From: Antedon mediterranea
Taxonomy: Eukaryota; Animalia; Echinodermata
Direction of reading: 5' to 3'
Assembly (NCBI RefSeq): GCF_964355755.1
Contig: NC_092672.1
Span: forward strand, 12,276,001 to 12,340,000
Length of the DNA stretch: 64,000 bases
This document shows, piece after piece, positions 1 to 64,000 of the stretch (its first letter is position 1; the number at the start of each line of letters is the position of its first letter). The translations under genes were made by a program, and so were the position numbers. Under the pieces are notes generated by a model, which searched no databases, had not been told where the DNA came from, and saw only the letters and a program-made list of their open reading frames with translations.

Positions 1-245
1 GTATATCGTTTGAACACCATGGACATAAACACATTCAATTCACTAGTATTATTCCTATTGTGGTGCGTTGGTATATTAGTTACCTGGATAAATTGGTGAT
101 GGCTCCACACTACTTCTGCCTGGAAATGAAATGATAATAAATGATGTTATATTTTAATATCTTCAAAAGTTGTGTAGATATTTTTATTATCATTACATAA
201 ATATTCACGTACATTTGTCACTGAAAGATATCATTGTTATTTATT

Positions 246-1357
246 TGTAGGTTAAATATGTGTGGGGATTAATCTAATCATGTGATAATTAAATACTGCC
301 CCCTATAGGTGTTGCTGCCCCCTATAATTGTAACAGTCTTTTTCAAATGATTTGCTTTCTTTTGTATTCATGAACCGGTCAAGGAAGCAGATAGTTTTGT
401 CTCTTATTTAATTAAAGATCTGATTAAAAGGTAATTACTCTACTTTATACATATATTACTTTGTTATACATTTATAAGATTCTGTTATGTTTAAGAAACA
501 TTAATGTTGTATTTTAAGATGATTGCATTCATAGGCCTAGACATTTGTTTTGGGTTAACCTTGACTCATGGAATGTGCAGTTAGGAAGCCTATTGAATAG
601 TATTGTGTTACAATCTTTGAACTAGGATTTTATGCCATATAATGTTATAATATATACTTTTGTGATAAACCTTCTTTGTATTAACAAAATATGTTTAGAT
701 AGATTTAGTAATGTTTAGTTTATAGAAGATAGTTTCTAGTTAACAGTTTGTATAAAATAGTTCATCCTACAGTTCACACTTGATTAATTTGTATACACGA
801 GGCTACCATGCTCGTGATAGATCGTCATGTAGTGCGCCCTCTATTTATCATACAAAATGGCTGCGCCCATGGATTTGTTATTGTTTATATATTTTACACA
901 AACCTAAGATTATAACTCCTTGATTCAATGAATAGACTAAGTTTAGTATTCAAATAGTGTGAGTAAATTCCAACATGCATTTATTCTAGTAATATAATAG
1001 TAATATTCAGGCACTTACGATGCAATTGTGTAGGTAATTAATTAGGTATTTGTATACTCTAACAAAGTATACAGAGGCTGTTTAGGTAGACGTGCCGTTT
1101 GACGTAATAGTCGCAGTCCTCAGAGAGAATCCTTTTTATTAGAGTCGCCTGTTAAGTGAGGTCGTTACTAAGAATTGGCTTGTATTTTAGAATATTATTT
1201 ACTTTTGTTTCTTATTGTATTTATTTTGTGGTTTTCAGGACCATACTGATCTCTATTGTTATGCTAAAAACAAATTAAAACCAAATACACCACCGGACCG
1301 TGGTAAAAGTGAGAAAAGGCGTGTTTTTCCTTTTGTGTTGTCGTCCACATCCTTACA
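246..1357 (+). mobile_element. Probable solo LTR in a gene A intron
   Basis: About 1.1 kb that is absent from the homologous ~190-bp intron of gene B. Termini TGTAGG...CCTTACA, attaaa signal ~80 bp before the end, flanks tatt/tatg (imperfect 4-bp TSD). Confidence 0.5.
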
Positions 1358-4300: not shown

Positions 4301-7300
4301 AGTCTAACCAATAATTAAACTTAATACACGATTTAATTTGAGGACCGTAGGCTACGCTATTTAAACTTCATCACTGTATCGGTTTTAACTAATTCAGCTT
4401 TAATTCCGTCCGTGTATACCACATACCGTTGCAAAATTGTAAGCTTGTCTAATGTTAATGTACTTCTGTTACCTTGATCCAATTTTTAGATTTTGACTTT
4501 TTACGAAATGTGTCCATATGTGTAGCAACCAAACAGATAGGAGGTGACTCGATGATCTTGCCATCAATATTAATGGGACTTCCTGGACCATGTTGTGCCA
4601 CAGTATGTTCATAAATGGACCTTATCCAGAACATATTCATTTCCAAATTGGTCATTCCTAGTGTACTCTAAAATCACAAATAAAATGCAATCTTACAAAG
4701 TAAGCTAAAATATTTTCAATAACAAAGATATGCATATTTAATAAAGTGAATTCGAACGAAATAAGTAGGTAGTCAACTTACTGTGGTTGAATCTCGCGGA
4801 TTAGCTGGTTCATCCAAGTTATCACACGCATTAAACGTTACACAGTAGGACACTCTATTTGTGAGGAAAAACTAAACAAAATACAATTGATAATAATAAC
4901 TTTGTTTATACTTCAAGTCATTTATTAGGGATGTGTTAATTGATACATGAAATAATACTTTAGTGAAAATGTTATACCACACCACAATGTCGTCACTATG
5001 AGCAAATCTCTTTATTTTGTAATAATCATTTAACATATGAAACAAAAACTATAGAACAAACGAAAAAATACATAAATCAAATAAAATTTTAAAATATAAT
5101 TTAAATGTCTGTTTAATAAAATAGATACGTAAACAAGCAAATCAAGACCCTTTTTTTAAACATGCACCAATAAATTTATTTTTAAATTTTTAAGACATTT
5201 TTAAGTACAGTAATAGCAAATAACAAAATAGGAACATACCCTATGCGTTATGTAGTAGTCCAGTTGACCTGCGTAGTCCCATATAGTAGTTACGCCACTT
5301 GGAATACTTTCTGAATCATCACTTTTTACAAATTTCCTAAACATTTTCATCGCCCTACTATCTTTCTGTCTTCGCTTTTTTATTTTAGCAACAACTTTTT
5401 TTTTAATTGAGTCGGGAATTGTCAGATTTTCTTTTAGTTGACTCTCTAAATTCAAATAATTACTACAAATCAATGGTGTGTGTGTAAATTAGATATGGAT
5501 ATGGATAGATGGACTGGTCTGAATTTTTGTGATTAGACATAATGAATGTTATAAAGGATAAGTAAGTGTATACAATAAATAAATACATTAGTCAGAATAA
5601 TTAAAGAATTGAACGAGCAGCGAATATTATTGATTGCCCAGTTTTAATACCAATGCAATATTTGCATTTTAATACATTTATATGTTTGCAACAAGAACAA
5701 CCTCACTCTTCCATACATATTATTTTACAAAAATATAAAGAAAACCAAATAATGAGTCCAACCCTTTTTTGCCGAATCCACTGCCAATGACGTGTAATCA
5801 GACTCTCTGGAATCCGATGTAGAAGCCTCGCATAAAGGAAGTTCGTTGAAAGATGATCTTTCTTTCATCTTTGATGTAATTTCTTCGACTACAGCGTCTT
5901 CAAATATTCGCTGGGTTTGCTTGAATCTCAGGTTTTTTGTCGGCGAAAATGTATAACTAAAAATGATTATTTGTGTCATGTTGCACTCATAACGAATAAA
6001 ATGGTTATATTTTTATATACTAGAACACTGAAATATCACTTATAGGCCTGTATAAGCTCCACAGCTCTAAATTTACTTTATATTAATAATAATGAAACAA
6101 TAATATAAACAACACTCCTATGAAGTTATAGTGTTTATTTCAGCATCAGCATGTAGAATACACTACATTAATTTGTTATTTACATTAAATTGGTTTATTT
6201 ACTTTACAAAACCTAAACAATAAACTAAAATATTAATTTCTTTTCTTGTCATGAAATTAATTTGCTGTTATTAATTCGCGTGCTGACTTGATAGTAAAGT
6301 GATTAAAATGCGAAAAACCAAACTTTATTTATGCAAAATAATCGTCAGTACGTATTATATTATTGATGTTTATTTGAAAACTTTAAAAATATTTAAAAAA
6401 ATAATCAAACCTTCCACTGAATACACAGAGTCAGAAGATATAGAACATTCAAAATCAGATATCGAAGGTGTTGAAACAGCACCTTGTAAATGGAATTTGG
6501 TTTCAGTTGACGTTTGTTTTTCCATCTTTGCTGTGATGTGTTCAGGCGTTTTCTGGGATGTTCCTGCAATTCATTATAATATATTTTTGATACAATATAT
6601 AAAATGTCTAACATTTCACTTTTATGTATGTTTCTATACTGTATGAGTGCATCTTAACTTGATTTTGATCACCAATACAGTTTGTTTAGAATAATAAAAA
6701 TACCCTTGTAATATAAATTGTAGTAGATATTCATCATACCTGTTTTTACTGGATCCAAAGAAGAGATTGCTGATGATTCCAGTTGGGAATCAGATTTAGA
6801 TGTTGACATATCTGAACTTCCTTCGCCATCATCCATTTGTTCTTTTATTAACTGTGTTGCAAGTTTTTCTGCAAGTGCATCTTCCCGTATTTTCTTGTTG
6901 AGCTCCATAACTGTAAAAAAACACAAGGTGAAATAAGGTTGTACGGTACACATCATAGAAAATAAATTAAATACTAAAATTAGAAAAATGAGATATATCA
7001 TCAAATCACCGGTAAATAAAATAAATATAATATGTAGGTCATTTATGTAATTATAGACCAAAATGCATTTTTAAGTATTTATTAAAAATATTATTTCCAA
7101 TGTACCTTACCGGTACTTATTACCTTAATTATGGTACTAATAAATCTCTATACAAAAATTGCCCAAAGCAGGCAAGTATGCGTATGTTGAAGGAAGAGAG
7201 AGTTTCTCTCTTTTGTGGGGACAGCCCACTTTGAACGAACAGTTAATGTGTCATTTGTTATGTTTTAATTCTTCTTTTCAAACTTACCGTCGATATCTTC

Positions 7301-7518
7301 CTTCTTCCACTTGTCACAGTCGTTTCCAATTGCTTGAAACAATGTCGTTGTGATATCAATACCATCAGTAGATAGTTCGTTGGATTTAAATCTATAATAA
7401 TGAATAATGAACTCCAAAAGGTCGGATTTAATGAAAGTAGAATGTATCCAATTGTTCATCTTAAAATATTAATATATTTTTTGGTGCATCTTATAAAATA
7501 ACTTGGTTCTTTTGTTAC

Positions 7519-7675
7519 CTTAGTCCAAGCATGGCCTTTACACAGCTAGTTTTTCCAGCACCTTCTTTCCCGAGAAACATACATCTTGAATTTACAACTG
7601 CAATCTCACCATTTTCAAGTTCATTTTGAAATGATCTAACTGCGCTTTCACCTCTAGCTAATATTTCATCTGGAA
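7519..7675 (-). CDS. Gene A Roc P-loop exon (paralog of 54237-54393)
   Basis: IPDEILARGESAVRSFQNELENGEIAVVNSRCMFLGKEGAGKTSCVKAMLGL; GT-AG bounded, 157 bp in both genes. Confidence 0.9.
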
Positions 7676-8501
7676 CTAAATTGCAATTAAAATAAATGCA
7701 AAATATACAAAAACAAATGTAAAAATACAAATATTTTACACTTAAGAATCAATTCGAAGCCATAGTTTTAACAATGTCATTATGACTGCTCATCGTTGTC
7801 ACATTCATACAGTTCAAAGGTTCAGTACAATGTTCAATATGTGTCATTAGTAATATACTGTTTTTAAACAGTATATTACTAATGACACATTTTAAAATAT
7901 TAAAATATTCATGATGCAAAAATCAAGAAAAGTGCATTAATACAAACTTACTGTCAAATAACTTCAATATCTTATTTTTCGTCTGTTTGGAGATTAGAAT
8001 ATTTTCCTTCAAAGCAGATGCAGGTGTTTGTCCTCGCTATACAAAAAAATGTATTAAAGTATTATCCACTGTTACTTTACTAATACTAGTAATGTACATA
8101 ATCCGGATTGAAATTAATACATTTATAAGCCAATAACGTGCACACGTTAATATGACACAATCTGAGTATCTTTGCACTAGCCAACACCAACACTAACTGC
8201 TCTACCATTTAATGTTTAATGTGATTGAATACGGTACACTTTAAAAATGCTATTGAACATTTTTATAAAAGAATAGTCGATACTGATTAAATGTACATGT
8301 TAATTATCGCATCTATGAGAATGTACCACCATGCTAACATAATGACTTTAAATAATTAGCGCCCTTTCTGATATTCTTTAGCTCCATGTTAATAACATAC
8401 TCCTAATCACAATAAGAGTATATCTTGGATATAGGCGTAATGGTTTGCTTAATAAGCACAATTTAAAAATGCAAATTCAATTTTGCATTAATTGACGGTA
8501 C

Positions 8502-8609
8502 CTTGTTTCTTGCTCCAAGTGATGCTCCGTGGGCTATGAGACTGTTCACAATTTCTAAATTACCAATACCGCTAAAGCTGACGTGTTGATGTAGCGGTGT
8601 GTTTCCCTC
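8502..8609 (-). CDS. Gene A ANK exon 8 (36 aa): EGNTPLHQHVSFSGIGNLEIVNSLIAHGASLGARNK
   Basis: 108 bp, AG/GT bounded, phase 0-0; one extra codon in the variable loop. Positional homolog of 55664-55768. Confidence 0.9.
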
Positions 8610-9340
8610 CTAGAAAGCAGAAAGTTGTATGTATTATAATATACATTTTACACGTTTGATACTAGAACTAAGGTTTAAACACATATATTGTATTATTATC
8701 TTTCAGTAGGACTTCGTTGATCATCCCTGCCAAATCGCCAGGACTTGTCTGGTGGGTGTAGGCCAACTGGAAATGCGTCTGACAAGTGGACAGCAGGGAA
8801 TGAGTTCAACGGATGTGAAGCATATATGTCTATCGATTATTGAATGAAAGTTAGATGATAAATCTTAATTGGGGTAAAAAATTAACTTCAGTAATGTAAA
8901 CGGGGTCCCATCGTTTTATTATTTTTTATGAAATCATACACATAAGCGCCATTATTGGTTCGGCATCATAGTCCTCAAGGTTTATGGTAAAGAAATTGTC
9001 AAGTAAATGGAGTATGTTGTTAATTTTCTACGATAGACCACAGTATATCATTACTGTAAATAATACAACTAGTTGATTTTAATTGGGACGTGGAGAGGTG
9101 TTAGCAAACATTATTTTGAAAGTATTGGTATTAACGTCTTGTTAAATGCGGCAGCTATATGATGTTTAAAATAATTTAAACTCACTTTGATAAATAAATA
9201 TGACTTTTTTTCTAAATAAAAATAAATTAAACAAATTCAAGGTTTGTTTATACGGGAGCTCATTTAGATTAACTTATATTGTTAATTAATACGAATAATA
9301 ACGTTATTGATTTTTTAATCATTTTGAAAGAGTAATTTAC

Positions 9341-9442
9341 ATTGTTTGTTATATAGATACAGACGGGTTAGCACTGAACACATTTTAAAACTATTAATTT
9401 AGCGTCTTGTTCAACGTGTCTATGTAGCGGTGTGTTTCCATT
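9341..9442 (-). pseudogene. Broken chimeric ANK cassette exon (ANK ends, intron-derived middle, in-frame stop)
   Basis: 5' part reads NGNTPLHRHV and the 3' end reads ACA AAC AAT|gt. The middle ~60 bp is cassette-intron sequence with TAA at 9370-9368. Confidence 0.75.
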
Positions 9443-9954
9443 CTTAAAAGTAGAAAGTTAGATTAAACTTGAGAAATTTTTTTAAGAATACCGGTATTAT
9501 TATATTACATATTTATCTTTTTCTATATTAATTTTCTAGTTCATTAAGAGTGACTGTAAATTATATAGAAGAACCTGGTATTAAGAAAATAATACAACTT
9601 GCTAATTTTAATTATTATAATACAGACGGGTTAGCAATGAACACATTTTAAGAAAATAATACAACTTGCTGATTTTAATTATTATAATACAGACGGGTTA
9701 GCATTGAACACATTTTAAAAGTATTAATTTAGCGTCTTGTTCAATCTAAAACCCTACAGCTACACAATGTTTAATATATTTTAAATTGTATTTTTGCTTT
9801 GATAATAACTATACATTTTTCCAATGAAATACACATTAAACGAATCTAGGGTTTGTTTATAACGGGAGATAATGTAAATTAACTTGTAGTGTTAACTAAT
9901 ACAAATAATTACATTAACCCTTTTTAATTCATTGTATGTAAAAGAGTAATTTAC

Positions 9955-10059
9955 ATTGTTTGTTGCTGTGATTGGTGCTCCATGGGTTATGAGACTGTTC
10001 ACTATCTCTACATTACCCTGGATAGACATAACGTGTGTATGTAGCGGTGTGTTTCCTTT
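9955..10059 (-). CDS. Gene A ANK exon 7: KGNTPLHTHVMSIQGNVEIVNSLITHGAPITATNN
   Basis: 105 bp, AG/GT bounded, phase 0-0. Confidence 0.9.
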
Positions 10060-10456
10060 CTGAAAAGAAGAAAGTTAGATTAAACTTGACGCATTTTTTT
10101 AAGAATACAGGTATTATTATATTACATATTTATCCTTTTCTATATTCATTTTGTAATTCATTAAGAGTGAATGTAAATTATATAGAAAAATCTAGTATTA
10201 AGAAAATAATTAAACTTGTTTAAAAAGTATTGATTTAGCGTCTTTTTCGATCTAAAACCCTACAGCTACACGATTTTCAATATATTTTAAATTTTATTTT
10301 TGCTTTGATAATAACTATACATTTTTCCAATGAAAAATACAATAAACGAATCTAGGGTTTGTTTATAACGGGAGATAATGTAAATTAACTTGTAGTGTTA
10401 ACTAATACAAATAATTACATTAATCCTTTTTAATTCATTGTAAAAGAGTAATTTAC

Positions 10457-10561
10457 ATTGTTTGTTGCTGTGATTGATGCTCCATGGGTTATGAGACTGT
10501 TCACTATCTCTACATTACCCTGGATAGATAGAACGTTTGTATGTAGCGGTGTGTTTCCTTT
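10457..10561 (-). CDS. Gene A ANK exon 6: KGNTPLHTNVLSIQGNVEIVNSLITHGASITATNN
   Basis: 105 bp, AG/GT bounded, phase 0-0. Confidence 0.9.
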
Positions 10562-10959
10562 CTGAAAAGAAGAAAGTTAGATTAAACTTGACGCATTTTT
10601 TTAAAAATACAGGTATTATTATATTACATATTTATCCTTTTCTATATTCATTTTGTAATTCATTAAGAGTGAATGTAAATTATATAGACAAATCTAGTAT
10701 TAAGAAAATAATAAAACTTGTTCAAAAAGTATTGATTTAGCGTCTTGTTCGATCTAAAATGCTACAACTACACGATTTTCAATTTATTTTAAATTGTATT
10801 TTTGCTTTGATAATAACTAAACATTTTCAAATGAAAAACACAATAAACGAATCTAGAGTTTGCTTATAACGGGAGATAATACAAATTAATCTGTAGTGTT
10901 AACTAATACAAATAATTACGTTAATGATTTTTAAACGACATTGTATAAGAGTAATTTAC

Positions 10960-11064
10960 ATTGTTTGTTGCTGTGATTAGTGCTCCGTGAGCTATAAGAC
11001 TGTTCACTATCTCTACATTACCACGGCCAATCTCAACGTGTGCATGTAGCGGTGTGTTTCCATA
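10960..11064 (-). CDS. Gene A ANK exon 5: YGNTPLHAHVEIGRGNVEIVNSLIAHGALITATNN
   Basis: 105 bp, AG/GT bounded, phase 0-0. Confidence 0.9.
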
Positions 11065-11323
11065 CTGAAAAGAAGAAAGTTAGTATTATTATATTTCATA
11101 TTTATCCTTTTCTACATTCATTTTCTAATTCTAAGAGTGAATGTAAATTATATGGAAATACCCGGTATTAAAAAAATAATGACTAACTGATTTCAATTAA
11201 GACATGCAGAGGATTTAGCAATGAACATCATTTTGAAAGTATTGATGTTAGCGTCTTGTTTAATCTAAAATTCGACAGCTTTACATGATGTTTAAATATC
11301 GTAAATTATATGGTGATGGTTAA

Positions 11324-12642
11324 TCTATATATAAATTATGGTTAATTCTGACATAGGCGAGCACAATGCAAAAACTTCTCTACAAATCTCCGCCTTGGAT
11401 ACCTACCTTATCTATCCGAGATGTACCGCGAAACGTAGATTTGATAACATTAGTGTGCACGCCGACGCTATTGTTCCATATTTATATCTTAGGAAGATAT
11501 TATAAAGAGTTTTTTAACAACATTTATGATTTCAACATTGGATTTTCCTCTCAATTTCAATTCTTCCCGGTCAAAGTAATTTCCGGGTTTAAGATAAGTT
11601 CACCTTAGTTTCAAATATTTTCTCTCTTTTATACACAAGGGAGCAGTTAAAATAATAGATTTGACCCTAAAGGTGAAACAGGCACTTTCCATCAATCAAT
11701 ACAGTGTCCCTTTGGAAGACGAAAAAAAAATTGGCCATTAATCATAGCCATTTCAGTTTTTTGTTTATTTTAAAACATACCACACATGTGTGAAGGTACA
11801 GTAGTTAAATAGTAGGAATTATACTGCAAATTAATAAAGATCAAATTAAATATACGCCATAAAGAATCAGAATATATTGTGGGGAATAGTATTATAAAAT
11901 TACATAGGGAGATTTGATAAGACGTTTTTCGAGTGAAATCCCGATAGCTGAGGTTTATTGAGTAAGCTTGCAGGAATAACTGTAGGCTATCTTCCTGTGT
12001 CCCGTTGGGACCGAGATGTCTGCCCATGTTGCAAGCCGTAATGTCTTCTTTCTTGGGCCCACTCTGTCACGGCAGTTAGTTTCAAAAGATGATTAAATAA
12101 AATAATGTATTAATAATTATTAGGATGGTATTCATTTGAATAAACGCCTCTCCAATAAAACATCACTTTGAATAATAACCCCCCCCCCCCCCCACAACCC
12201 AACTATCTAATAAACGTCCATCCACATATTTATAATAACACAATTATACTATTTGTAGTAGAATTCACCGCACTGTTATCTGCAATTTACCAAGCATTTG
12301 TTACTCTTTTTTACCACTTTTCATATCTATGAGATGATTTCATTTGATTATAATTGTTACCATATTATTAGAACTAAAAAATTTAACATATATCCCTCGA
12401 ATAAGCACCTCCCTCAAATGACCTCCGCCTCCCCAAAGGGCCCTACCAAACAATAAAAACTATACTTTAAAATGTTATTAATCATCTAAGACACTGTGAA
12501 ACAAAGTAGTTCAGTTTTACGAATGTCAAGCATTTTCAATAATGGTAACCGACAGAAAATGTATAAGGAGAACATTATCATTCTAAGAACCATCGTCTAC
12601 ACTTCCTAGAGGGGGAGCGAGCGAAGCGAGCTCACCCTCTAG
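11324..12642 (+). mobile_element. Non-autonomous Helitron
   Basis: 5' TCTATATATAAA; 3' GC hairpin (gagggggagc...gcgaagc...gctcaccctc) ending in CTAG. Inserted between A and T with no TSD. The empty site ggttaa|taactat is visible in the sister unit near 17683. Confidence 0.85.
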
Positions 12643-13271
12643 TAACTATAAATAATATAATTTATTAAATTAATAAACATATTCCTACGCCTAGACATTT
12701 CGTTTAGATTCAAGTAAACTTTCATGAATACTGAATTTGTAGATATGTATGTATTTATCAAACCGCCTTCAAAACATAATTGCAAATTCCAACAATACAC
12801 ACTACGGTGAATTCAATAAATATTTTGTTATATTATTAATCTACTATCCATCCCACCTTCATCCTACAATAAAAGAAAATATTACGTAATTCATTTCTCC
12901 CATTTGCTATGAGGCTTTTGAATGCAAGCTATGTGTATGTATCGTGTTATATGACATTTGCCTTTTTGTTATATTTGTTGCATTTGTATTTTATCCTATA
13001 GGTGACGTACTGTCTGTAGTTTACCATTTTTTTTTCTACTACGAATAATAACGTTAATGATTTAAATAATAGTAAATCTCTGTCAACGCTACCAAACTGT
13101 ATCAATAAAGTGTCGTACTGTCTGTATTTTACCAATTTTATCAAAGAATTGAATCAAACAACAATAAAAACAAACTACTATTTATCAACTATGAGATTTA
13201 AATGCATGCTTGAGTTGAGAGCAAGCAAAACCGTCAACAACAACAATGTATCTCGTCACTTTCCTACAAGC

Positions 13272-14907
13272 CAGCGTTGCCAGCGATAAAATTTAAATTA
13301 TGCCGTATCCTGTCTCAAATAATGCCAGATTGGGAAAAATAATGCCAGATCCCCAAAATGTGGCCCTAAACAGCGCCACCAACGGTTGTATGTCTAATAA
13401 ACGTTTGTAAAACCCCAACTGACACAAAATAGGGCCTAAAATTGTATCCCCATGTCGTACAAAATTTATATTTTTAGTTTTGTGAGTATTAACTAATAAT
13501 TCTAAATATCTGGGGTGCGAAAATGGTAATTGCAAATGACACCAACACCAACCCCTACCCCCCCCCCCCCCCACCCTATAAAATAAAAAAACAGCCATGG
13601 AAATTTATAATTTTTGAGCTGAAATATGAGAGCTGCTCGATGGCCGGGATATTTGCACTTAATTTTAAAAAATGAAAGGATCTTATAGCCACCATAATTA
13701 GAAAATGGAAATTATAATTTAAAATAGGAAATAAAAAAGATTATTTTGAGTGTCTCCAGGACCTCAGCCCCACCATGGTTGATAAGAACATTTGGAAAAA
13801 TACAGCTACTCGATGGCCGGAAATGGCACTTAATTAATATGAAATAAAAATATATTTATTAGTGTCTCCATGATCTTAGCCCACCATAGTTCGAAAATGG
13901 CAATTATAATTTAAAATAGGAAATCAAAATATATATTAATTGTGTCTCCAGGACCTCATGGTTGGGGCTGAGGTAAGAAAATTTGAAAAAATAGAGCTGC
14001 TCAATGGCCGGAAATGGCACTTAATTTCAAATATAAAATAAATTTATTAGTACCTCCAGGATCTTAGCCCATGATAGTTTTGAAAGTGCCAATTATAATT
14101 TAAAATAGGAAATAAAAATATATATTAAGTGTTTCCAGGACCTCAGCCCCACCATGGTTGGGGCTGAGGTAAAACAAATTGGAATAATAGAGCTGCTAGA
14201 TGGCCGGAAATTGCACTTAATTTTAAATAAAAATGTATAAGAGTCCCTAGGACCTCGCCCCATCATGGTCACTGAGAGATGAAGAACATTTGGAAATATA
14301 GGGTTGCTACGACGATGCAAATGGAACATAATTTGAAATATGGAAAACAAATTCTCTAGAAGAAATTCTTTTTAAAATTAGAGCTTCTAGTTACCGGAAA
14401 TTGCCATTTTAAGGGTTGGGGTAGGGGTGTGGCCGCTTATAATTATGAACTGAAAAAACAAAACCCCTTTCATAATGTGTTTTCGTTCAATTGTCTCTAT
14501 ATCTGGGGATCCAATAACCTGCATGGTCTCTGAAATAGAGCAACATAATTGGCCAATAGGTAGCCTCTTCGGATTTGTTGTGCTGCCTATATCGCACACA
14601 CGGTAGTTTTCGAGCAGCCTTCCTATCCGAAGAGCCGATTAAGTCCGAAACGAAAGGATGGAAAAACTATTGTACGGAAAACCCGAACAGATCTGTTTTG
14701 TACGATATGATATTGTGTAGGGTGATATGTATTAACAAAATATTTTATTTTTGTTCTGTGGTATATTATTTTTCTGGTTGTTCAAAAAACACAAAATTAT
14801 GCCAGATTATGCTAAAAACGGCTAAATAATGCCGCGGCATTATGCCAGATGCCGTGGGCCTCCAAATAATGCCAAAAAGCATAATAATGCCAGAAATGGC
14901 AACTATG
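13272..14907. mobile_element. Non-autonomous hAT-like DNA transposon
   Basis: Perfect 8-bp TSD ctacaagc (13264-13271 and 14908-14915); imperfect TIRs cagcgttgcca / tggcaactatg; subterminal ataatgcca repeats; internal ~180-bp tandem repeats; absent from sister units. Confidence 0.85.
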
Positions 14908-16853
14908 CTACAAGCTTGCCGTTAAATAATTATAGAGGGGGTAGTTTCAATAAACTTTGGCAGACGGCAAACATACAATGTATAGAGTGCGTTTAAAAAT
15001 ATTTTCGGAGCTTATTAATGAGATCAGTATTTGTAGTAGACATGAAGACAATATATTTTAATTTAGATTGATTATTTGTGTAAGAGGAAAACATATACTT
15101 AGTTCTACTATCTGAATAAACTAAAGGGAATTCATCTTCAATTGATTGTAGAGAGCATAATTTGCATAGTCTATCATTTCTATTAGGCCTAATACGATTC
15201 CATCTTCCTTTTTCTAGTTATAATATTCCTAGTCTTTGTTTAGTCACAATGTGTCTATGTTTGTAATTTTAATTACGTATTCTTCCGTTCCAACATAATT
15301 TATATTGATTGCGTGTAAAATATTGGAGCTTATAGAGAGTGTAACCTATTATCTCATAGAATTGTGTCGTTCAATAAGCCTCGCCTTTGTTTAAATTTAG
15401 AAATAAAAAATATTGTTGACCTGTTGAGCATGCCATGTTGCCAAACCCATTTATACATAATAAGTTTTACATCATTGACCCAAATTGCTCATTTTGTTAC
15501 GTTTTTCTATGTTGAAAATCATAACATTGTTTAATGAATTTTTAATAATCTATTTGGCTTACTCTCAGCCACTAACGAATTAAATTAATGATAGTTGGAG
15601 TTTGGATAGGGAATCCTCGACATTCTCCTTTCATTACATCACTTGGAGCAGAATTTTCTATTCCTAAAATATATTTTTATTCTAAAATCAAAATATAATC
15701 CGAGTGGTATGAAGAAATTGTTCATCTGCTGGAAAACTACAAGTCAGTCGATGCTACAAACCACAAGGAAAGTCATTATATCTCAGATGCTAGTGAAGTA
15801 GTATGTGGTCAATGCACGTATTTAAGATTGATGACTCACGATAATATTCCTTCTATTTCTCTACTATTACAGTAGCTAACGCCAAAGTTACCCCAGCTAA
15901 AAAAAACAAGATATCAAGTGTATGTAGCTAACCGGGTACAACAAATCAACGATGCAACTTCCATAGAAAACATCTTCTAATCCGAGTGATATAGTCAGTA
16001 GAGCCGTGCGTGCTAACAGTAAGCAATTGATTTCAGATACCGGATGGGTGAGTAGTTCTACACTTCTTCACCAGGTAGTTCTTAACAAACAAAGGCGGTT
16101 GGCCGAAATCGATGACGAATCGAGTATAAGGTTGTTGCTTCAGAACTAAAATATATTCGCTCATTCCACACTAATGTTGACAAAGTTGCTTCAGAATGGT
16201 TTTATAACAGACAGATAAAATGAACTATAAATCACATTAAATGTATTGAATGTTCATTCCCCTTAAAGGAACCAACACGTAGTAAGGCATATTTTTTAGA
16301 TATGCCTATCAATGGTAAACTTAACAGTGATATAAGACAGCAAAACACATGCAATAATTTAATATGAAAAGATTGGTGTAAATATTGCGAGGAGCCATGT
16401 AACGGCAGTATGTGTAACCGAGTTAATGATTATGTAATTGTTGTTGAAGATATGCTCATCGGGAATAATTTGCATAAAATACCATGTTAGCCTACGTATA
16501 TTAGAAATCTCACTAGCTGTGTAGTTAGTTGAGACGATGCTATCGTCAGCTGCACGATTTTTAATATATTTTAAATTGTAGTTTTGCTTTGATAATAAAT
16601 GATTTTAATTATTATAATACAGAAGGGTTAGCATTGAACCCATTTTAGAAGTATTGGTTTAGCGTCTTGTTCAATCTAAAACGCTACAGCTACACAATTT
16701 TTAATATATTTTAAATTGTATTTTTCATTTGATAATAACTATACACTTTTCCAAAGAAAAACACATTAAACAAATCTAGGATTTACTTATAACGGGAGAT
16801 AATATAAATAATTACGCTATGGATTTTTAAATCATTGTATAAGAGTAATTTAC

Positions 16854-16958
16854 ATTTTTTGTTGCTGTAACTGATGCTCCGTTGGCTATAAGACTGTTCA
16901 CTATCTCTACATTACCCCTGCCAAACCTAACGTGTTCATGTAGCGGTGTGTTTCCATC
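16854..16958 (-). CDS. Gene A ANK exon 4: DGNTPLHEHVRFGRGNVEIVNSLIANGASVTATKN
   Basis: 105 bp, AG/GT bounded, phase 0-0. Confidence 0.9.
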
Positions 16959-17322
16959 CTGAAAAGAAGAAAGTTAGTATTATTATATTTCATATTTTTC
17001 TTTTCTAGATTCATTTTTTAATTCATTAAGAGTGACCGTAAATTATCTAGAAATACCTAGTATTAAGAAAATAATAAAACTTGTTTAAAAAGTATTAATT
17101 TCGCGTTTTTTTTTTATCTAAAACGCTACAGCTACACAATTTTCAATATATTTTAAATTGTATTTTTGCTTTGATAATAACTAAACATTTTTCCAATGAA
17201 AAACACAATAAACGAATCTATGGTTTGCTTATAACGGGAGATAATGTAAATTCACTTGTAGTGTTAACTAATACGAATAATTACGTTAATGATTTTTAAA
17301 TCATTGTATAAGAGTAATTTAC

Positions 17323-17427
17323 ATTGTTTGTTGCTGTGATTAGTGCTCCGTGAGCTATAAAACTGTTCACTATCTCTAAATTACCACGGCCAAACTCAAC
17401 GTGTCTATGTAGCGGTGTGTTTCCATC
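17323..17427 (-). CDS. Gene A ANK exon 3: DGNTPLHRHVEFGRGNLEIVNSFIAHGALITATNN
   Basis: 105 bp, AG/GT bounded, phase 0-0. Confidence 0.9.
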
Positions 17428-20400
17428 CTGAAAAGAAGAAAGTTAGTATTATTATATTTCATATTTATCCTTTTCTACATTCATTTTCTAATTCTAAGAG
17501 TGAATGTAAATTATATGGAAATACCTGGTATTAAAAAAATGACTAACTGATTTCAATTAAGACATGCAGATGATTTAGCAATGAACATCATTTTGAAAGT
17601 ATTGATTTTAGCGTCTTGTTTAATCTAAAATTCGACAACTGTACATGATGTTTAAATATCGTAAATTATATGGTGATGGTTAATAACTATAAATAATATA
17701 ATTTATTAAATTAATAAACATATTCCTACGGCTAGACATTTCGTTTAGATTCAAGTAAACTTTCATGAATACTGAATTTGTAGATATGTACGTATTTACC
17801 AAACCGCCTTCAAAACATAATTGCAAATTCCAACAATACACACTTACGGTGAATTCAATAAATATTTTGTTATATTATTAATCTACTATCCATCCCACCT
17901 TCATCCTACAATGAAAAAAAATATTACGTAATTCGTTTCTCCCATTTGCTATGAGGCTTTTGAATGCAAGCTATGTGTATGTATCGTGTTATATGACATT
18001 TGCCTTTTTGTTATATTTGTTGCATTTGTATTTTATCCGGTGACGTACTGTCTGTAGTTTACCATTTTTTTTTCTACTAGGAATAATAACGTTAATGATT
18101 TAAATAATAGTAAATCTCTGTCAACGCTACCAAACTGTATCAATAAAGTGTCGTACTGTCTGTATTTTACCAATTTTATCATATCTTTACTATATTTATT
18201 TAATATGTGACAAGCAGGACAATTTGTTTTACATTTCTCAGAGCTTGTTGGTATATCATCATAATTACATTTTTCACAAATTAAAATATTGTGGTTTAGG
18301 GCCTACATAGTTATTATCAAACATTCTCATATACAGTACTTCATTGCCTCTTTGTACTGTATTTCACCTTTCCTAGCTGTGGATGCTTGCCAACGTCGCA
18401 TAACATACTCGTTTAACTATCATTAATAACCAATAAACAAGTTAGCAAAATCTGTCTCACTACATTTGGCCAGTGCCATTAAAAAAACTTCTTGGAAGAG
18501 AGATGAGGATCTCAAAATCACAATAAATGCGTTAAAATTGAATCAAACAACAATAATAACAAACTACTATTTATCAACTGTGAGATTTAACAACAACAAT
18601 GTATCTCGTCTCTTTCCCTCAAGCTTGCCGTTACATAATTATAGAGGGGGTAGTTTCAATAAACTTTGGCAGACGGCAAACATACAATGTATAGAGTGCG
18701 TTTAAATATTTTCTGAGCTTACTACTAATGAGATCAGTATTTGTAGTAGACATAAGGACAATATATTTTAATTTAGATGGATTATTTGTGTAAGATGATC
18801 GAAAACATATACTTAGTTCTACTCTGAATAAACTAAAAGGAATTCATCTTCAATTGATTGTAGAGAGAATAATTTGCATAGTCTATCATTTCTATTAGGC
18901 CTAATACGATTCCATCTTCATTTTTCTAGTTATAATATTCCTAGTTAAGTCACAATGTGTCTATGTTTTTAATTTTAATTAAGTATTCTTCCATAATTCC
19001 AACATAATTTACATTAAATGCGTGTGAAATATTGGAGCTTATAGAGAGTGTAACCTATTATCTCATAGAATTGTGTCGTTCAATAAGCCTCGCCTTTGTT
19101 TAAATTTTGAAATAAAAAATATTGTTGACCTGTTGAGCATGCCATGTTGCCAAATCCATTTATTCATAATAAGTGTTACATCATTGACCCAAATCGCTCA
19201 TTTTGTTGCGTTTTTCTATGTTGAAAATCATAACATTGTTTAATGAATTTTTCATAATCTATTTGGCTTACTCTCAGCCACTAACGAATTAAATTAATGA
19301 TACTTAGAGTTTGGATAGGAAATCCTCGACATTCTCCTTTCATTACATCACTTGGAGCAGATTTTTCTATTCCTAAAAGATATTTTTATTCTAAAATCAA
19401 AATATAATCCAAGTGGTATGAAAAAATTGTTCATCTGCTGGAAAACTACAAGTCAGTCGATGCTACAAACCACAAGGAAATTTATTATATCTCAGATGCT
19501 AGTGAAGTAGTATGTGGTCAATGCACGTATTTAAGGTTGATGACTCATGATAATATTCCTTCTATTTCTCTACTATTAGCTAACGCCAACGTTACCCCAG
19601 CTAAAAAAAAACAAGGTATCAAGTGTATGTAGCTAACCGGGTACAACAAATCAACGATGCAACTTCCATAGAAAACATCTTCTAATCCGAGTGATATAGT
19701 CAGTAGAGCCGTGCGTGCTAACAGTAAGCAATTGATTTCAGATACCGGATGGGTGAGTAGTTCTACACTTCTTCACCAGGTAGTTCTTAACAAACAAAAG
19801 CTGTTGGCCGAAATCGATGACGAATCGCGTATAAGGTTGTTGCTTCAGAACTAAAATATATTCGCTCATTCCACACTAATGTTGACAAAGTTGTTTCAGA
19901 ATGGGTTTATAACAGACAGATAAAATGAACTATAAATCACATTAAATGTATTGAATGTTCATTCCCCTTAAAGGAGCCAACACGTAGTAAGGCATATTTT
20001 TTAGATATGCCTATCAATGGTAAACTTAACAGTGATATAAGACAACAAAACACATGCAATAAATTAATATGAAAATATTGGTGTAAATATTGCAAGGAGC
20101 CATGTAACGGCAGTATGTGTAACTGAGTTAATGATTATGTAATTGTTGTTTAAGATATGCTCATCGGGAATAATTTGCATAAAATACCATGTTAGCCTAC
20201 GTATATTAGAAATCTCACTAGCTAGTGTAGTTAGTTGAGACGATGCTATCGTCAGCTGCACGATTTTTAATATTTCTTAAATTGTGGTTTTGCTTTGATA
20301 ATAAATGATTTTAATTATTATAATACAGAAGGGTTAGCAATGAACACATTTTAAAAATATTAATTTAGGCTCTTGTTCAATCTAAAACGCTACAGCTACA

Positions 20401-20559
20401 CAATTTTTAATATATTTTAAATTGTATTTTTCCTTTGATAATAACTATAGACTTTCCAAAAGAAAAACACATTAAACAAATCTAGGATTTGCTTATAACG
20501 GGAGATAATTCAAATAATTACGCTATGGATTTTTAAATCATTGTGTAAGAGTAAATTAC

Positions 20560-20664
20560 ATTGTTTGTTGCTGTGACTGAGGCTCCGTTGGCTATGAGAC
20601 TGTTGACTATCTTTACATTACCCCTGCCAGACCTAACGTGTTCATGTAGCGGTGTGTTTCCATC
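20560..20664 (-). CDS. Gene A ANK exon 2: DGNTPLHEHVRSGRGNVKIVNSLIANGASVTATNN
   Basis: 105 bp, AG/GT bounded, phase 0-0. Confidence 0.9.
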
Positions 20665-22579
20665 CTGGAAAGAAGAAAATTAGTATTATTATATTTCATA
20701 TTTTTCTTTTCTATATTCATTTTCTAATTCATTAAGAGGGAATGTAAATTATATAGAAATACCTGGTATTAAGAAAACAATGACTAACTGATTTCAATTA
20801 AGACATGCCGATTATTTAGCAATGATCATTTTAAAAGTATTGATTTTAGCATCGTGTTTAATCTAAAATTCGACAGCTGTACATGATGTTTAAATATCGT
20901 AAATTATATGGTGATGGTTAGTAACTTTAAATAATATAATTTATTAAATTAATAAACATATTCCTACGCCTAGACATTTCGTTTAGATTCAAGTAAACTT
21001 TAATGAATACTGAATTTGTAGATCTGTATGTATTTACCAAACCGCCTTCAAAACATAATTGCAAATTCCAACAATACACTCTACAGTGAATTAAATAAAT
21101 ATTTTGTTATATTATTAATCTATTATCCATCCCACCTTCATCCTACAATGAAAATATTACGTAATTCGTTTCTCCCATTTGCTATGAGGCCTTTGAATGC
21201 AAGCTATGTTTATGTATCGAGTTATGACATTTGCCTTTTTGTTATATTTGTTGCATTTGTATTTTATCCTATAGGTGTCGTACTGTCATGTATTTTACCA
21301 TTTTTTTTTCTACTACGAATAATAAGGTTAATGATTTTAAATAATAGTAAATCTCTGTCAACGCTACCAAACTGTATCAATAAAGTGTCGTACTGTCTGT
21401 ATTTTACCAATTTTATCATATCTTTACTATATTTATTTAATATGTGACAAGTAGAAAAATTTGTTTTACATTTCTCAGAGCTTGTTGGTATTTCATCATT
21501 ATTACATTTTTCACGAATTAAAATATTGTGGTTTAGGGCCTACATAGTTATTATCAAACATTCTCATACACAGTACTTCATTGCCTCTTTGTACTGTATT
21601 TCACCTTTCCTAGCTGTGGATGCTTGCCAACGTCGCATAACATACTCGTTTAACTATCAAATAACAAATAAACAAGTAGCAAAATCTGTCTCACCACATT
21701 TGGCCAGTGTCATAAAAAAAAAAAAAAATTGGAAGACAGATGAGGATCTAAAAATCACAATAAATGCGTTAAAATTGAATCAAACAACAATAATAACAAC
21801 CTACTATTTATCAACTGTGAGATTTAAATGCATGCTTGAGTTGAGAGCAAGTAAAACCGTTAACAACAACAATGTATCTCGTCTCTTACCCTCAAGCTTG
21901 CCGTTAAATAATTATAGAGGGGGTAGTTTCAATAAACTTTGGCAGACGGCAAACATACAATGTATAGAGTGCGTTTAAATATTTTCTGAGCTTACTAATG
22001 AGATCAGTATTTGTAGTAGACATAAGGACAATATATTTTGATTTAGATGGATTATTTGTGTAAGAGGAAAACATATACTTAGTTCTACTATCTGAATAAA
22101 CTAAAAGGAATTCATCTTCAATTGATTGTAGAGAGCATAATTTGCATAGTCTATCATTTCTATTAGGCCTAATACGATTCCATCTTCCTTTTTCTAGTTA
22201 TAATATTCCTAGTCTTTGTTTAGTCACAGTGTGTCTATGTTTTTAATTTTAATTAAGTATTCTTCCATAATTCCAACATAATTTACATTGAATGCGTGTG
22301 AAATATTGGAGCTTATAGAGAGTGCAAACTATTATCTCATAGAATTGTGTCGTTCAATAAGCCTCGCCATTGTTTAAATTTTGAAATAAAAAAATATTGT
22401 TGACCTGTTGAGCATGCCATGTTGTCAAATCCATTTATACATAATAAGTTTTTCATCATTGACCCAAATCGCTCATTTTGTTGCGTTTTTCTATGTTGAA
22501 ATCATAACATTGTTTAATGAATTCTTAATAATCTATTTGGCTTACTCTCAGCCACTAACGAATTAAATTAATGATACTT

Positions 22580-23110
22580 GGAGTTTGGATAGGGAATCCT
22601 CAACATTCTCCTTTCATTACATCACTTGGAGCAGAATTTTCTATTCCTAAAAGATATTTTTATTCTAAAATCAAAATATAATCCAAATGGTATGAAGACA
22701 TTGTTCATCTGCTGGAAAACTACAAGTCAGTCGATGCTACAAACCACAAGGGTTTGGAGAAGTCAAGCAGGCAGAAATTCATTATATCTCAGATGCTAGT
22801 AAAGTAGTATGTGGTCAATGCACGTATTTAAGATTGATGCCTCATGATAATATTTCTTCTATTTCTCTATTATTAGCTGACGCCAGCTAAAAAAACAAGA
22901 TATCAAGTGTATGTAGCTAACCGGGTATACAACAAATCAACGATGCAACTTCCATAGAAAACATCTTCTAATCCGAGTGATATAGTCAGTAGAGCCATGC
23001 GTGCTAACAGTAAGCAATTGATTTCAGATACCAGATGGGGTGAGTAGTTCTACACTTCTTCACCAGGTAGTTCTTAACAAACAAAGGCGGTTGGCCGAAA
23101 TCGATGACGA
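22580..23110 (+). mobile_element. Degenerate BEL/Pao LTR-retrotransposon pol (RNase H region) fossil inside the 3.3-kb unit; copies at about 15600-16120, 19310-19830 and 25840-26370
   Basis: Reads LQVSRCYKPQGFGEVKQAEIHYISDASKVVCGQCTYLRLM, then YQVYVANRV, SNPSDIVSRA and WVSS across frameshifts. Matches the BEL/Pao pattern PRCY...ELHxFSDAS..YG...YLR / FVANRV / NPADxxSRG. Confidence 0.8.
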
Positions 23111-23849
23111 ATCGCGTATAAGGTTGTTGCTTCAGAACTAAAATATTTTCGCTCATTCCACATTAATGTTGACAAAGTTGTTTCAGAATGGTTTTATAAC
23201 AGACAGATAAAATGAACTATAAATCACATTAAATGTATTGAATGTTCATTCCCCTTAAAGGAGCCAACACGTAGTAAGGCATATTTTTTATTAGATATGC
23301 CTATCAATGTTAAACTTAACAGTGATATAAGACAACAAAACACATGCAATAATTTAATATGAAAAGATTGGTGTAAATATTGCAAGGAGCCATGTAACGG
23401 CAGTATGTGTAACTGAGTTAATGATTATGTAATTGTTGTTGAAGATATGCTCATCGGAAATAATTTGCATAAAATACCATGTTAGCCTACGTATATTAGA
23501 AATCTCACTAGCTAGTGTAGTTAGTTGAGACGATGCTATAGTCAGCTGCACGATTTTTAATATATTTTAAATTGTAGTTTTGCTTTGATAATAAATGATT
23601 TTAATTATTATAATACAGAAGGGTTAACAATGAACACATTTTTAAAATAATAATTTAGGCTCTTGTTCAATCTAAAACGCTACAGCTACACGATTTTTAA
23701 TATATTTTAAATTGTATTTTTCCTTTGATAATAACTATACACTTTTCCAAAGAAAAACACATTAAACAAATCTAGGACTTGCTTATAACGGGATATAATA
23801 TAAATCATTACGCTATGGATTTTTAAATCATTGTATAAGAGTAATTTAC

Positions 23850-23954
23850 ATTGTTTGTTGCTGTAACTGATGCTCCGTTGGCTATGAGACTGTTCACTAT
23901 CTCTACATAACTCCTGTCAGACCCAACGTGTTCATGTAGCGGTGTGTTTCCATC
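23850..23954 (-). CDS. Gene A ANK exon 1: DGNTPLHEHVGSDRSYVEIVNSLIANGASVTATNN
   Basis: 105 bp, AG/GT bounded, phase 0-0, TPLH motif. Confidence 0.88.
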
Positions 23955-26840
23955 CTGAAAAGAAGAAAGTTAGTATTATTATATTTCATATTTTTCTTTT
24001 CTACATTCATTTTCTAATTCATTAAGAAGGAATGTAAATTATATAGAAATACCTGGTATTAAGAAAATAATGACTAACTGATTTAAATTAAGACATGCAG
24101 ATTATTTAGCAATGATCATTTTAAAAGTATTGATTTTAGCATCTTGTTTAATCTAAAATTCGACAGCTGTACATGATGTTTAAATATCGTAAATTATATG
24201 GTGATGGTTAGTAACTTTAAATAATATAATTTATTAAATTAATAAACATATTCCTACGCCTAGACATTTCGTTTAGATTCAAGTAAACTTTAATGAATAC
24301 TGAATTTGTAGATCTGTATGTATTTACCAAACCACCTTCAAAACACAATTGCAAATTCCAACAATACACTCTACGGTGAATTAAATAAATATTTTGTTAT
24401 GTTATTAATCTATTATCCATCCCACCTTCCTCCTACAATGAAAATATTACGTAATTCGTTTCTCCCATTTGCTATGAGGCTTTTGAATGCAAGCTATGTG
24501 TATGTATCGAGTTATGACATTTGCCTTTTTGTTATATTTGTTGCATTTGTATTTTATCCTATAGGTGTCGTACTGTCATGTATTTTACCATTTTTTTTTC
24601 TACTACGAATAATAAGGTTAATGATTTTAAATAATAGTAAATCTCTGTCAACGCTACCAAACTGTATCAATAAAGTGTCGTACTGTCTGTATTTTACCAA
24701 TTTTATCATATCTTTACTATATTTATTTAATATGTGACAAGCAGGACAATTTGTTTTACATTTCTCAGAGCTTGTTGGTATTTCATCATAATTACATTTT
24801 TCACAAATTAAAATATTGTGGTTTAGGGCCTACATAGTTATTATCAAACATTCTCATATACAGTACTTCATTGCCTCTTTGTACTGTATTTCACCTTTCT
24901 TAGCTGTGGATGCTTGCCAACGTCGCATAACATACTCTTTTAACTATCAAATAACAAATAAACAAGTAGCAAAATCTGTCTCACCACATTTGGCCAGTGT
25001 CATAAAAAAAAAAAAATTGGAAGACAGTTGAGGATCTGAAAATCACAATAAATGCGTTAAAATTGAATCAAACAACAATAATAACAACCTACTATTTATC
25101 AACTGTGAGATTTAAATGCATGCTTGAGTTGAGAGCAAGTAAAACCGTTAACAACAACAATGTATCTCGTTTATAGAGGGGGTAGTTTCAATAAACATTG
25201 GCAGACGGCAAACATACAATGTATAGAGTGCGTTTAAATATTTTCTGAGCTTACTAATGAGATCAGTATTTGTAGTTGACATAAGGACAATATATTTTGA
25301 TTTAGATGGATTATTTGTGTAAGAGGAAAACATATACTTAGTTCTACTATCTGAATAAACTAAAAGGAATTCATCTTCAATTGATTGTAGAGAGCATAAT
25401 TTGCATAGTCTATCATTTCTATTAGGCCTAATACGATTCCATCTTCCTTTTTCTAGTTATAATATTCCTAGTCTTTGTTTAGTCACAGTGTGTCTATGTT
25501 TTTAATTTTAATTAAGTATTCTTCCATAATTCCAACATAATTTACATTGAATGCGTGTGAAATATTGGAGCTTATAAAGAGTGCAAACTATTATCTCATA
25601 GAATTGTGTCGTTCAATAAGCCTCGCCATTGTTTAAATTTTGAAATAAAAATATATTGTTGACCTGTTGAGCATGCCATGTTGTCAAATCCATTTATACA
25701 TATAAAGTTTTACATCATTGACCCAAATCGCTCATTTTGTTGCGTTTTTCTATGTTGAAATCATAACATTGTTTAATGAATTTTTAATAATCTATTTGGC
25801 TTACTCTCAGCCACTAACGAATTAAATTAATGATACTTGGAGTTTGGATAGGGAATCCTCGACATTCTCCTTTCATTACATCACTTGGAGCAGAATTTTC
25901 TATTCCTAAAAGATATTTTTATTCTAAAATCAAAATATAATCCAAATGGTATTAAGACATTGTTCATTTGCTGGAAAACTACAAGTCAGTCGATGCTACA
26001 AACCACAAGGGTTTGGAGTAGTCAAGCAGGCAGAAATTCATTATCTCAGATGCTAGTGAAGTAGTATGTGGTCAATGCACGTATTTAAGATTGATGCCTC
26101 ATGATAATATTTATTCTATTTCTCTATTATTAGCTGACGCCAGCTAAAAAAACAAGATATCAAGTGTATGTAGCTAACCGGGTATACAACAAATCAACGA
26201 TGCAACTTCCATAGAAAACATCTTCTAATCCGAGTGATTTAGTCAGTAGAGCCATGCGTGCTAACAGTAAGCAATTGATTTCACATACCGGATGGGTGAG
26301 TAGTTCTACACTTCTTCACCAGGTAGTTCTTAACAAACAAAGGCGGTTGGCCGAAATCGATGACGAATCGCGTATAGTTGTTGCTTCAGAACTAAAATAT
26401 ATTCGCTCATTCCACACTAATTGTTTCAGAATGGTTTTATAACAGACAGATAAAATGTATTGAATGTTCATTCCCCTTAAAGTAGCCAACAAGTAGTAAG
26501 GCATAATTTTTCACGCTGCTGCTTTAGCCCGCTACATCCCAGGAGGATGACACATTAAGAAACCGAAAGTAAAGCAGCAGTTATATATCCAAGGTTGACA
26601 GTTTTGCTAAAATGCATACTCGACTGTAATTTATAGGTACCACCAAAAAATGTCTGGGAAAAAGTCTAACGGTTGAATGACAAATCCTAAAGCATTTGTG
26701 GTATTTATGAGTCCCATGATATTATATAGTTCGTTGTCATACATTATTCAAAGGTTTTCTTGTTTTTCATCCTTGAGTTTACCGTAAACATGGTGATGAT
26801 TTATATCATATTCAAATTCAAATAAATATAGTTTCTATAC

Positions 26841-26934
26841 CTTATCTATGGAGTTCACAAGATGTGGTTATGTTTTACATATTTCTTCAATTTTTTCCAA
26901 ATTTCTATATCTTACAGCTCTTAGCAATACGTTT
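26841..26934 (-). CDS. Gene A ankyrin N-cap exon with in-frame TAA
   Basis: Strong acceptor (pyrimidine run + cag) and AAG|gtatag donor. Reads (E)NVLLRAVRYRNLEKIEEICKT*PHLVNSIDK and ends in phase 0, joining DGNTPLH of the first ANK cassette. Confidence 0.75.
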
Positions 26935-60824: not shown

Positions 60825-60873
60825 TTTACTCCCCTCTAAAAGAAATATGTACCAACATTTTCTCTAAATATAT

Positions 60874-63800: not shown

Positions 63801-63963
63801 TGGGATCTGGATTTCCTGGTGCTCGTACTCCTGCAATATTACCTAATATCAAGTCATAAATAGGGTTATTCATACATAGTGCATACGTATTTCCTGAAAA
63901 AAATGGTGTATTAACCTGTATTAATGCAACCGGTAGGTTGCGGACCGTGCCGTCAATCAGCAC
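60874..63963 (-). pseudogene. pol: Retrotransposon pol split into three ORFs
   Basis: ORFs 63592-63963, 61854-63653 and 60874-61884. Adding one T to the T-run at 61927-61930 restores VTVFDAEPIPDQ; a second frameshift lies near 63605-63620. Confidence 0.85.
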
Positions 63964-64000
63964 ACAGGTTTTCTCCTTACCAGTAAGTTGTTCGGCTGAT

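Follow-up and report, generated by a model that had tools for sequence, protein, structure and literature searches.

Do the ankyrin repeats encoded at a crinoid ROCO locus form a binding surface that is reshuffled and selected for diversity? We analysed a 64,000-nt stretch of Antedon mediterranea DNA (the window), in which a first-pass annotation had described an array of one-exon-one-ankyrin cassettes and had proposed a recombination-diversified immune receptor family. The window holds two tandem paralogs, genes A and B, both on the minus strand. Both have the architecture N-cap, one-exon-one-ankyrin cassettes, Roc-COR and tandem death effector domains (DED), and neither has a kinase; the N-cap is seen directly only in gene A and in the paralog XP_071944626.1, and the DED directly only in gene B. 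The observation was confirmed in part, and so was its interpretation. Selection, recombination, splicing in the family and the domain layout support it, whereas the match to designed ankyrin repeat proteins (DARPins) is partial and the eight-cassette gene A is probably non-functional. With moderate confidence, we favour the view that the family consists of cytosolic immune sensors in which unequal crossover and conversion in the germline rearrange the cassettes. The immune function is a candidate one that we infer from the sequence.

Cassette exons, loop selection and recombination

A six-frame scan of the window gave 12 ankyrin-start motifs, all on the minus strand; none of the 12 cassette copies is inverted. 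Eleven are intact exons (ten of 105 nt and one of 108 nt), each bounded by AG and GT and of phase 0-0, a regularity far beyond chance. Eight belong to gene A and three to gene B, as had been annotated, and all 11 loops listed at that time were recovered. The statement that no two exons share a loop holds within the window but not family-wide: TLGD, the loop of B1, recurs twice in XP_071944626.1, so that it is found in 3 of 15 35-residue repeats in all. The flanking introns are homologous but not near-identical, as they had been called. The upstream 260 nt are 67-98% alike among nine of the 11 cassettes, with A8 only 47% alike and B2 carrying a transposon 62 nt upstream. Downstream introns are 77-95% alike among nine of the 11, and the terminal exons A8 and B3 have a downstream intron of their own. 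Distant paralogs also have near-identical repeats that vary at the same loop.

The twelfth copy, at 9341-9442, is broken. Its splice sites are kept, but everything past the start of the variable loop has been replaced by copied cassette intron, and it has an in-frame stop. The point at which the intron copy takes over coincides exactly with the variable loop and falls at a short motif common to both sequences, resembling a template switch. This broken cassette may mark the loop as a rearrangement point.

We then compared nonsynonymous (pN) and synonymous (pS) differences per site among the cassettes, with the A8 loop masked. At codons 1, 8 and 11-14, pN was 0.516 and pS was 0.130; elsewhere, pN was 0.084 and pS was 0.153. 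Codon site models were fitted to the 11 exons of 35 codons using our own GY94 code and naive empirical Bayes. With F3x4 and F1x4 codon frequencies, respectively, 2ΔlnL was 31.8 and 25.8 for M1a/M2a, 32.8 and 29.2 for M7/M8, and 31.8 and 25.7 for M8a/M8. The posterior probability of selection was 1.0 at codons 11, 12 and 14 and 0.78-0.98 at codon 8, and did not exceed 0.73 at codon 1. The M1a/M2a statistic was 20-54 on all four trees used. In 30 neutral simulations, each with five segments reshuffled independently, the statistic never exceeded 12.2, against 25.8 observed. A neutral mutation-hotspot class fitted worse than a class with ω>1 in four of six fits (p 0.0003-0.0006). In four close cassette pairs, 12 of 60 bases differed in the loop, compared to 14 of 360 in the rest of the exon and 55 of 1100 in the introns. 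The Roc-COR scaffold gave a pN/pS of 0.51 between A and B. Sites with dN/dS above 1, on which the first-pass annotation had staked its reading, exist (ω2 = 6.7-9.9). These results indicate that cassette codons 8, 11, 12 and 14 are under positive selection.

Recombination among the cassettes, which had also been proposed, has left visible traces in B3 and A4. B3 is B2-like through the acceptor and the 5' part of the exon, and then A8-like through the 3' end and the intron. A4 has a far-upstream intron of the A6/A7 type, and its exon and downstream intron are of the A1/A2 type. The pairwise homoplasy index (PHI) gave p=0.008 on eight of the 11 cassettes, A8, B2 and B3 being left out for their non-homologous flanks. 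These results indicate that the cassettes are mosaics of one another. The scaffold is a mosaic as well: at silent sites, A and B have diverged by 2-9% over Roc and by 23-34% in parts of COR, and the paralogs have two COR types that are about 55% alike between flanks that are 82-98% alike. In the comparison of paralogs P0002, P0004 and P0011 with genes A and B, the two COR types lie between highly similar Roc and DED flanks; they might set dimer partners.

Tandem units of about 3.3 kb carry A4, A2 and A1 and are 93-95% alike, with a partial fourth unit (25171-26511) at 90%. Assembly duplication was considered as their origin and rejected, because the three copies are only 93-95% alike.

In the predicted structure of XP_071944626.1, residues 1-270 fold as an ankyrin stack (block pLDDT 69-96) that matches DARPins and ankyrin-B; the model is unusable over Roc, with pLDDT below 50 from residue 295. 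Sites 8 and 11 lie in helix 1 and sites 12-14 in the turn of this model. The variable residues had been assigned largely to the positions randomised in DARPins. Sites 1, 11 and 12 align with positions varying among the repeats of DARPin 6mol. Site 8 aligns with a mostly Leu/Glu position, and sites 13-14 fall in a gap, so that the selected site 14 sits in an insertion that DARPins lack. In the hairpin, the crinoid cassettes show almost no change at those positions that differ between DARPins. The hot patch is thus predicted to comprise the end of helix 1 and the lengthened turn, shifted from the DARPin set.

Scaffold, transcripts and the state of the two genes

Both genes carry the motifs GKEGAGKT, STDGI, WDYAG and ATHMD, which we take to be G1-G4 of Roc. 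Pfam Roc scored 39.7-41.2 bits against a cut-off of 27 in the P-loop-containing paralogs. COR follows directly after Roc (COR-A E 3e-16, 60.1 bits against 35.3 in the RefSeq model of gene B). No kinase domain was matched in the close paralogs, and the start exon, N-cap and cassettes run straight into Roc. Roc-COR stands in the place of a NACHT or NB-ARC ATPase. The model of the last exon of gene B resembles the tandem DED of caspase-8 and cFLIP (TM 0.63; Z 13.7, rmsd 3.6-4.3 over 162-167 residues). The top nine rows of the structure search were all tandem DEDs, and death domains reached Z 5.8 at most. The proposed layout of sensor (ANK), switch (Roc-COR) and effector (tandem DED) holds, with the reservation that the DED exon of gene A lies beyond the left edge of the window and is known only from RefSeq's gene A model.

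None of the listed sequencing runs is recorded as RNA, but two of them, X8 and X9, which carry different organism codes, are presumed to be RNA from their intron-less joints. X8 contigs contain the joints 7391-7519, 7675-7952 and 8036-8502, each of which leaves out a GT..AG intron; at the last of these, the shorter side spans 85 letters. X9 contigs contain the joints 7391-7519 and 7675-7952, and the junction 51569-51909 of the gene B model is present in two of them. The terminal repeat in X8 is 6 nt shorter than A8 and has many base differences from it. The first-pass annotation had let its reading depend on the splicing of ANK exons to Roc-COR exons, and the RNA-like contigs of the family join 8502 to 8036 and 7952 to 7675. 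These results indicate that family transcripts splice ANK exons to Roc exons. ANK-to-ANK joints were found in both runs (in X9 beside the joints above). We rejected them as proof of exon skipping, since near-identical paralog exons make their placement ambiguous.

The start of gene A (27142) lies outside the stretch 8502..23954 described previously, and its start and N-cap exons are confirmed by XP_071944626.1, a single protein with the same start and N-cap, followed by six cassettes, the linker and Roc. Codon 25 of the N-cap is TAA, where paralogs have Tyr. The acceptor before the exon 5763-5936 reads AA instead of AG (5938-5937); this 174-nt exon could be skipped in frame. The start and N-cap exons, the stop, the changed acceptor and the broken twelfth cassette had all been overlooked. 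Because of the stop at codon 25 and the broken acceptor, gene A in this sequence is probably a pseudogene or null allele. It is unlikely that two independent assembly errors underlie the stop and the acceptor change. Gene B has 20 exons from B1 to the stop, all with AG/GT boundaries, in a single open frame of 1136 codons. Its 5' end lies outside the window, past a long terminal repeat (LTR) retrotransposon that starts at 59531.

XP_071944624.1 of A. mediterranea matches gene B's last exon at 100% identity, and the Roc-COR exons of gene A match XP_071944622.1 at 99-100%. At least nine RefSeq proteins of the subfamily map to the same 38.96-Mb contig, fragments or isoforms possibly among them, and more distant ANK-Roc-COR paralogs sit on two other contigs. 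Contig depth summed across the family exons was many times that of exact-match pieces, a ratio that we do not read as a copy number. Relatives exist in the crinoid Anneissia japonica (nine matches, seven from Antedon and two from Anneissia). The cassettes are absent from most RefSeq models of the family, so automatic annotation conceals it.

Proposed germline receptor diversification and its alternatives

ROCO proteins shift in nucleotide and dimer state through Roc-COR, and DEDs form assemblies. We propose that unequal crossover and conversion in the germline reshuffle the cassettes and are likely to set receptor specificity. A ligand-binding rim would be formed by the selected residues, which are placed where helix 1 ends and in a turn lengthened by 1-3 residues. 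Ligand binding would shift the nucleotide and dimer state of Roc-COR, and this shift would cluster the tandem DEDs into assemblies with a caspase-8- or FADD-like partner, as their fold suggests. Such assemblies may lead to cell death or inflammatory signalling. The family would be under birth-and-death evolution, with gene A probably dead or null and gene B open over all 20 exons seen. A bolder version is a natural DARPin library, that is, a germline ankyrin-cassette ROCO-DED repertoire with cassettes moving between genes, dead copies such as gene A donating, and arrays differing between individuals. We put it forward tentatively and think it unlikely as a whole; if true, it would be an anticipatory intracellular receptor system in a deuterostome.

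Several points weigh against the immune-sensor reading. The selection test relies on only 11 exons of 35 codons and self-written code, and the hotspot-versus-selection comparison gave p=0.36 on the variable-codon tree (in an unconverged fit) and p=0.045 on the star tree. The comparison of close pairs uses sites picked after seeing the data. PHI gave p=0.076 without the loop codons and p=0.10 with introns alone. The DED scored 27.3 in Pfam, below the cut-off of 35.9, and its model is middling (pLDDT 64.7). Judging from their many base differences, the RNA-like contigs are transcripts of paralogs or alleles. As a probably dead copy, gene A may owe part of its cassette churn to neutral change.

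The same recombination and selection could also serve a sensor of self/non-self or cell quality (allorecognition-like recognition, parasite or symbiont control, or cell death in autotomy and regeneration). The sequence evidence fits self and microbial ligands alike. Available parts of previous reports describe allorecognition by fungal NLRs with high-identity repeats (PMC13449251) and a brown-algal ROCO response that non-immune stress also triggers (PMC11378527). However, nothing points to a polymorphic self ligand and relatives carry standard anti-invader effectors, and we judge this explanation doubtful. It is improbable that the diversity is mainly somatic, through Dscam-like combinatorial exon skipping or rearrangement. 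Symmetric phase-0 exons would allow skipping, an open frame requires that the stop-bearing broken cassette be skipped, and alternative splicing of LRR exons is among the reported features of brown-algal ROCOs (PMC11378527, in part). On the other hand, in none of the contigs can skipping be distinguished from the mapping of paralogs, the exons have no apparent mutually exclusive arrangement, and mosaics at the DNA level already account for the diversity.

Neutral exon duplication in a decaying array, with a loop that is unconstrained or mutation-prone, would account for the two lesions and the broken cassette of gene A, the transposons within gene B introns, the lack of cassettes in most RefSeq models, and the damage in the broken cassette that begins at the loop. 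This explanation is largely refuted and, in our judgement, very improbable: divergence in the loop is four times as fast as in the introns, the loop shows no excess of silent change (pS 0.130 against 0.153), models capped at ω=1 fit worse with or without a hot class, and the same loop varies in more distant paralogs. Unlikeliest is a housekeeping role, in which the protein would serve as an apoptosis or cytoskeletal scaffold for one fixed partner. The order of ANK, Roc-COR and death-fold domain is that of DAPK1, but the crinoid genes have no kinase domain and a tandem DED rather than a death domain. They are also multi-copy and fast-evolving, with close relatives named only from crinoids.

DAPK1 consists of a kinase, ankyrin repeats, Roc-COR and a single C-terminal death domain. 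It shares with the crinoid genes the ankyrin repeats, Roc-COR and a C-terminal death-fold domain, and they differ from it in lacking the kinase and in being tandem-DED, multi-copy and hypervariable.

Related systems and other features of the window

The nearest design that we found is that of the brown-algal LRR-ROCO genes, which the available parts of previous reports present as exon-shuffled candidate receptors (Zambounis et al. 2012, PMC3341825; Teng et al. 2024, PMC11378527). In both systems, Roc-COR lies behind repeats that are each encoded by a single exon, recombination acts within and between genes, and there is positive selection as well as birth and death. The algal genes also have inactivated intronic exons, to which the one inactivated cassette of the window may correspond. 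The algal LRR is of 24 aa and phase 2 (PMC11378527, in part), whereas the crinoid ankyrin is of 35 aa and phase 0. The crinoid family is animal, has a C-terminal tandem DED and shows no inverted intronic exons in the window. It works like the brown-algal ROCOs but is not a member of that family, because its repeat type is ankyrin.

Fungal NLRs with high-identity WD40, ANK or TPR repeats are described, in the part of the report available, as controlling allorecognition (PMC13449251). As in the crinoid family, their repeats are nearly identical apart from variable positions and are exchanged between genes, there are pseudogenes, the ANK units measure 33-36 aa, and the sensor is coupled to death effectors. 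They use a STAND ATPase and a C-terminal sensor, and the crinoid genes use a Roc-COR GTPase and an N-terminal sensor in which each repeat is an exon of its own. Bacterial AP-GTPase (Roc)-COR conflict systems (PMC8195603) have fast-evolving repeats or other N-terminal domains, Roc-COR and a variable immune effector, and the ROCO-TIR/Death proteins of the invertebrate Aplysia (PMC9334734) likewise combine N-terminal domains, Roc-COR and a variable immune effector. The bacterial sensors are LRR, and the available parts of these two reports describe neither exon cassettes nor selection. DARPins (PMC8683736, in part) share the fixed self-compatible framework, the N-cap and variable surface positions; the crinoid repeats, of 34-36 aa, have extra residues in the turn between helices 1 and 2, and the selected site 14 falls in this insertion.

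No publication on ankyrin-cassette ROCO genes in animals was found by title or abstract, and older ROCO surveys may list such architectures. Exon-cassette diversification of ROCO genes is known from brown algae, and the ankyrin, DED-coupled animal version is apparently new. If the immune-sensor reading is true, the same design has arisen again in animals, which would support many ROCO GTPases as NLR-like immune switches. Crinoid immunity has hardly been investigated, and the locus supplies a concrete candidate receptor family that is open to testing. It also supplies an ankyrin scaffold of natural origin in which the variation lies in a lengthened helix 1-helix 2 turn and not in the hairpin.

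The wider family was scanned in 27 long proteins among the 150 best representatives, with some domain scores below Pfam cut-offs. Roc or COR was found in 26 of the 27, and 20 of these 26 carry DED, Death, TIR, CARD, HEPN or GT4. The remaining protein (P0037) is a NACHT-LRR headed by about five tandem-DED units related to the DED of the family. Among ten wider-family proteins, four are from Antedon, three from Anneissia and two from Amphiura. Two ROCO relatives, P0047 and P0070, are fused to TAZ or TAZ-KIX domains of the CBP/p300 type, possibly as an integrated decoy.

Coordinates of the features in the 64,000-nt window
Feature	Position	Strand	Basis or remark
Gene A linker, Roc and COR exons	84..8036	-	P-loop exon 7519-7675
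Terminal ANK exon A8 (SFSGI)	8502..8609	-	108 nt; own flanking introns
Broken 12th cassette	9341..9442	-	102 nt between AG and GT
ANK cassette A7 (MSIQ)	9955..10059	-	exon scan, gene model
ANK cassette A6 (LSIQ)	10457..10561	-	exon scan, gene model
ANK cassette A5 (EIGR)	10960..11064	-	exon scan, gene model
Tandem units of about 3.3 kb	14911..26511	.	self-comparison; strand not assigned
ANK cassette A4 (RFGR), mosaic	16854..16958	-	flank comparison
ANK cassette A3 (EFGR)	17323..17427	-	exon scan, gene model
ANK cassette A2 (RSGR)	20560..20664	-	exon scan, gene model
ANK cassette A1 (loop GSDR)	23850..23954	-	exon scan, gene model
Gene A N-cap exon, 94 nt	26841..26934	-	TAA at 26870-26868; paralog comparison
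Gene A start exon, coding part (Met-Asp-)	27135..27142	-	phase-2 donor; matches start of XP_071944626.1
Last exon of gene B (tandem DED and stop)	46686..47215	-	
Gene B linker, Roc and COR	47366..54721	-	16 exons, AG/GT, open; one junction matched by RNA-like contigs
Terminal ANK exon B3 (MVGY), chimera	55664..55768	-	sequence comparison
ANK cassette B2 (KGGY)	56207..56311	-	exon scan, gene model
Inverted-repeat DNA transposon-like insertion in B1-B2 intron	56373..58132	.	TA flanks; strand not assigned
ANK cassette B1 (TLGD)	58516..58620	-	exon scan, gene model
LTR retrotransposon upstream of B1	59531..64000	-	LTR 59531-60824, pol ORFs 60874-63671

Further observations concern the neighbourhood of the two genes. 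The first exon of the XP_071944624.1 model is 93% alike to 53419-53589 of the window and fits a neighbouring paralog, and the remainder is 99.8% identical; the model is possibly chimeric or derived from another haplotype. The proteins P0008, P0009 and P0014 consist of a related tandem DED only, are encoded on the same contig and are candidate adaptors or decoys by their sequence. The Antedon paralog P0015 has ankyrins and two Roc-COR units within a single protein. In the pol region of the retrotransposon upstream of B1, the integrase lies upstream of reverse transcriptase (RT) and RNase H, an order that suggests a Gmr1-like Ty3/gypsy element; the RT frame is broken. The 1.76-kb inverted-repeat element was judged to be high-copy by contig depth. 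Between genes A and B, at 41606-44520, a 71-bp unit is repeated in tandem 41 times with 96% matches.

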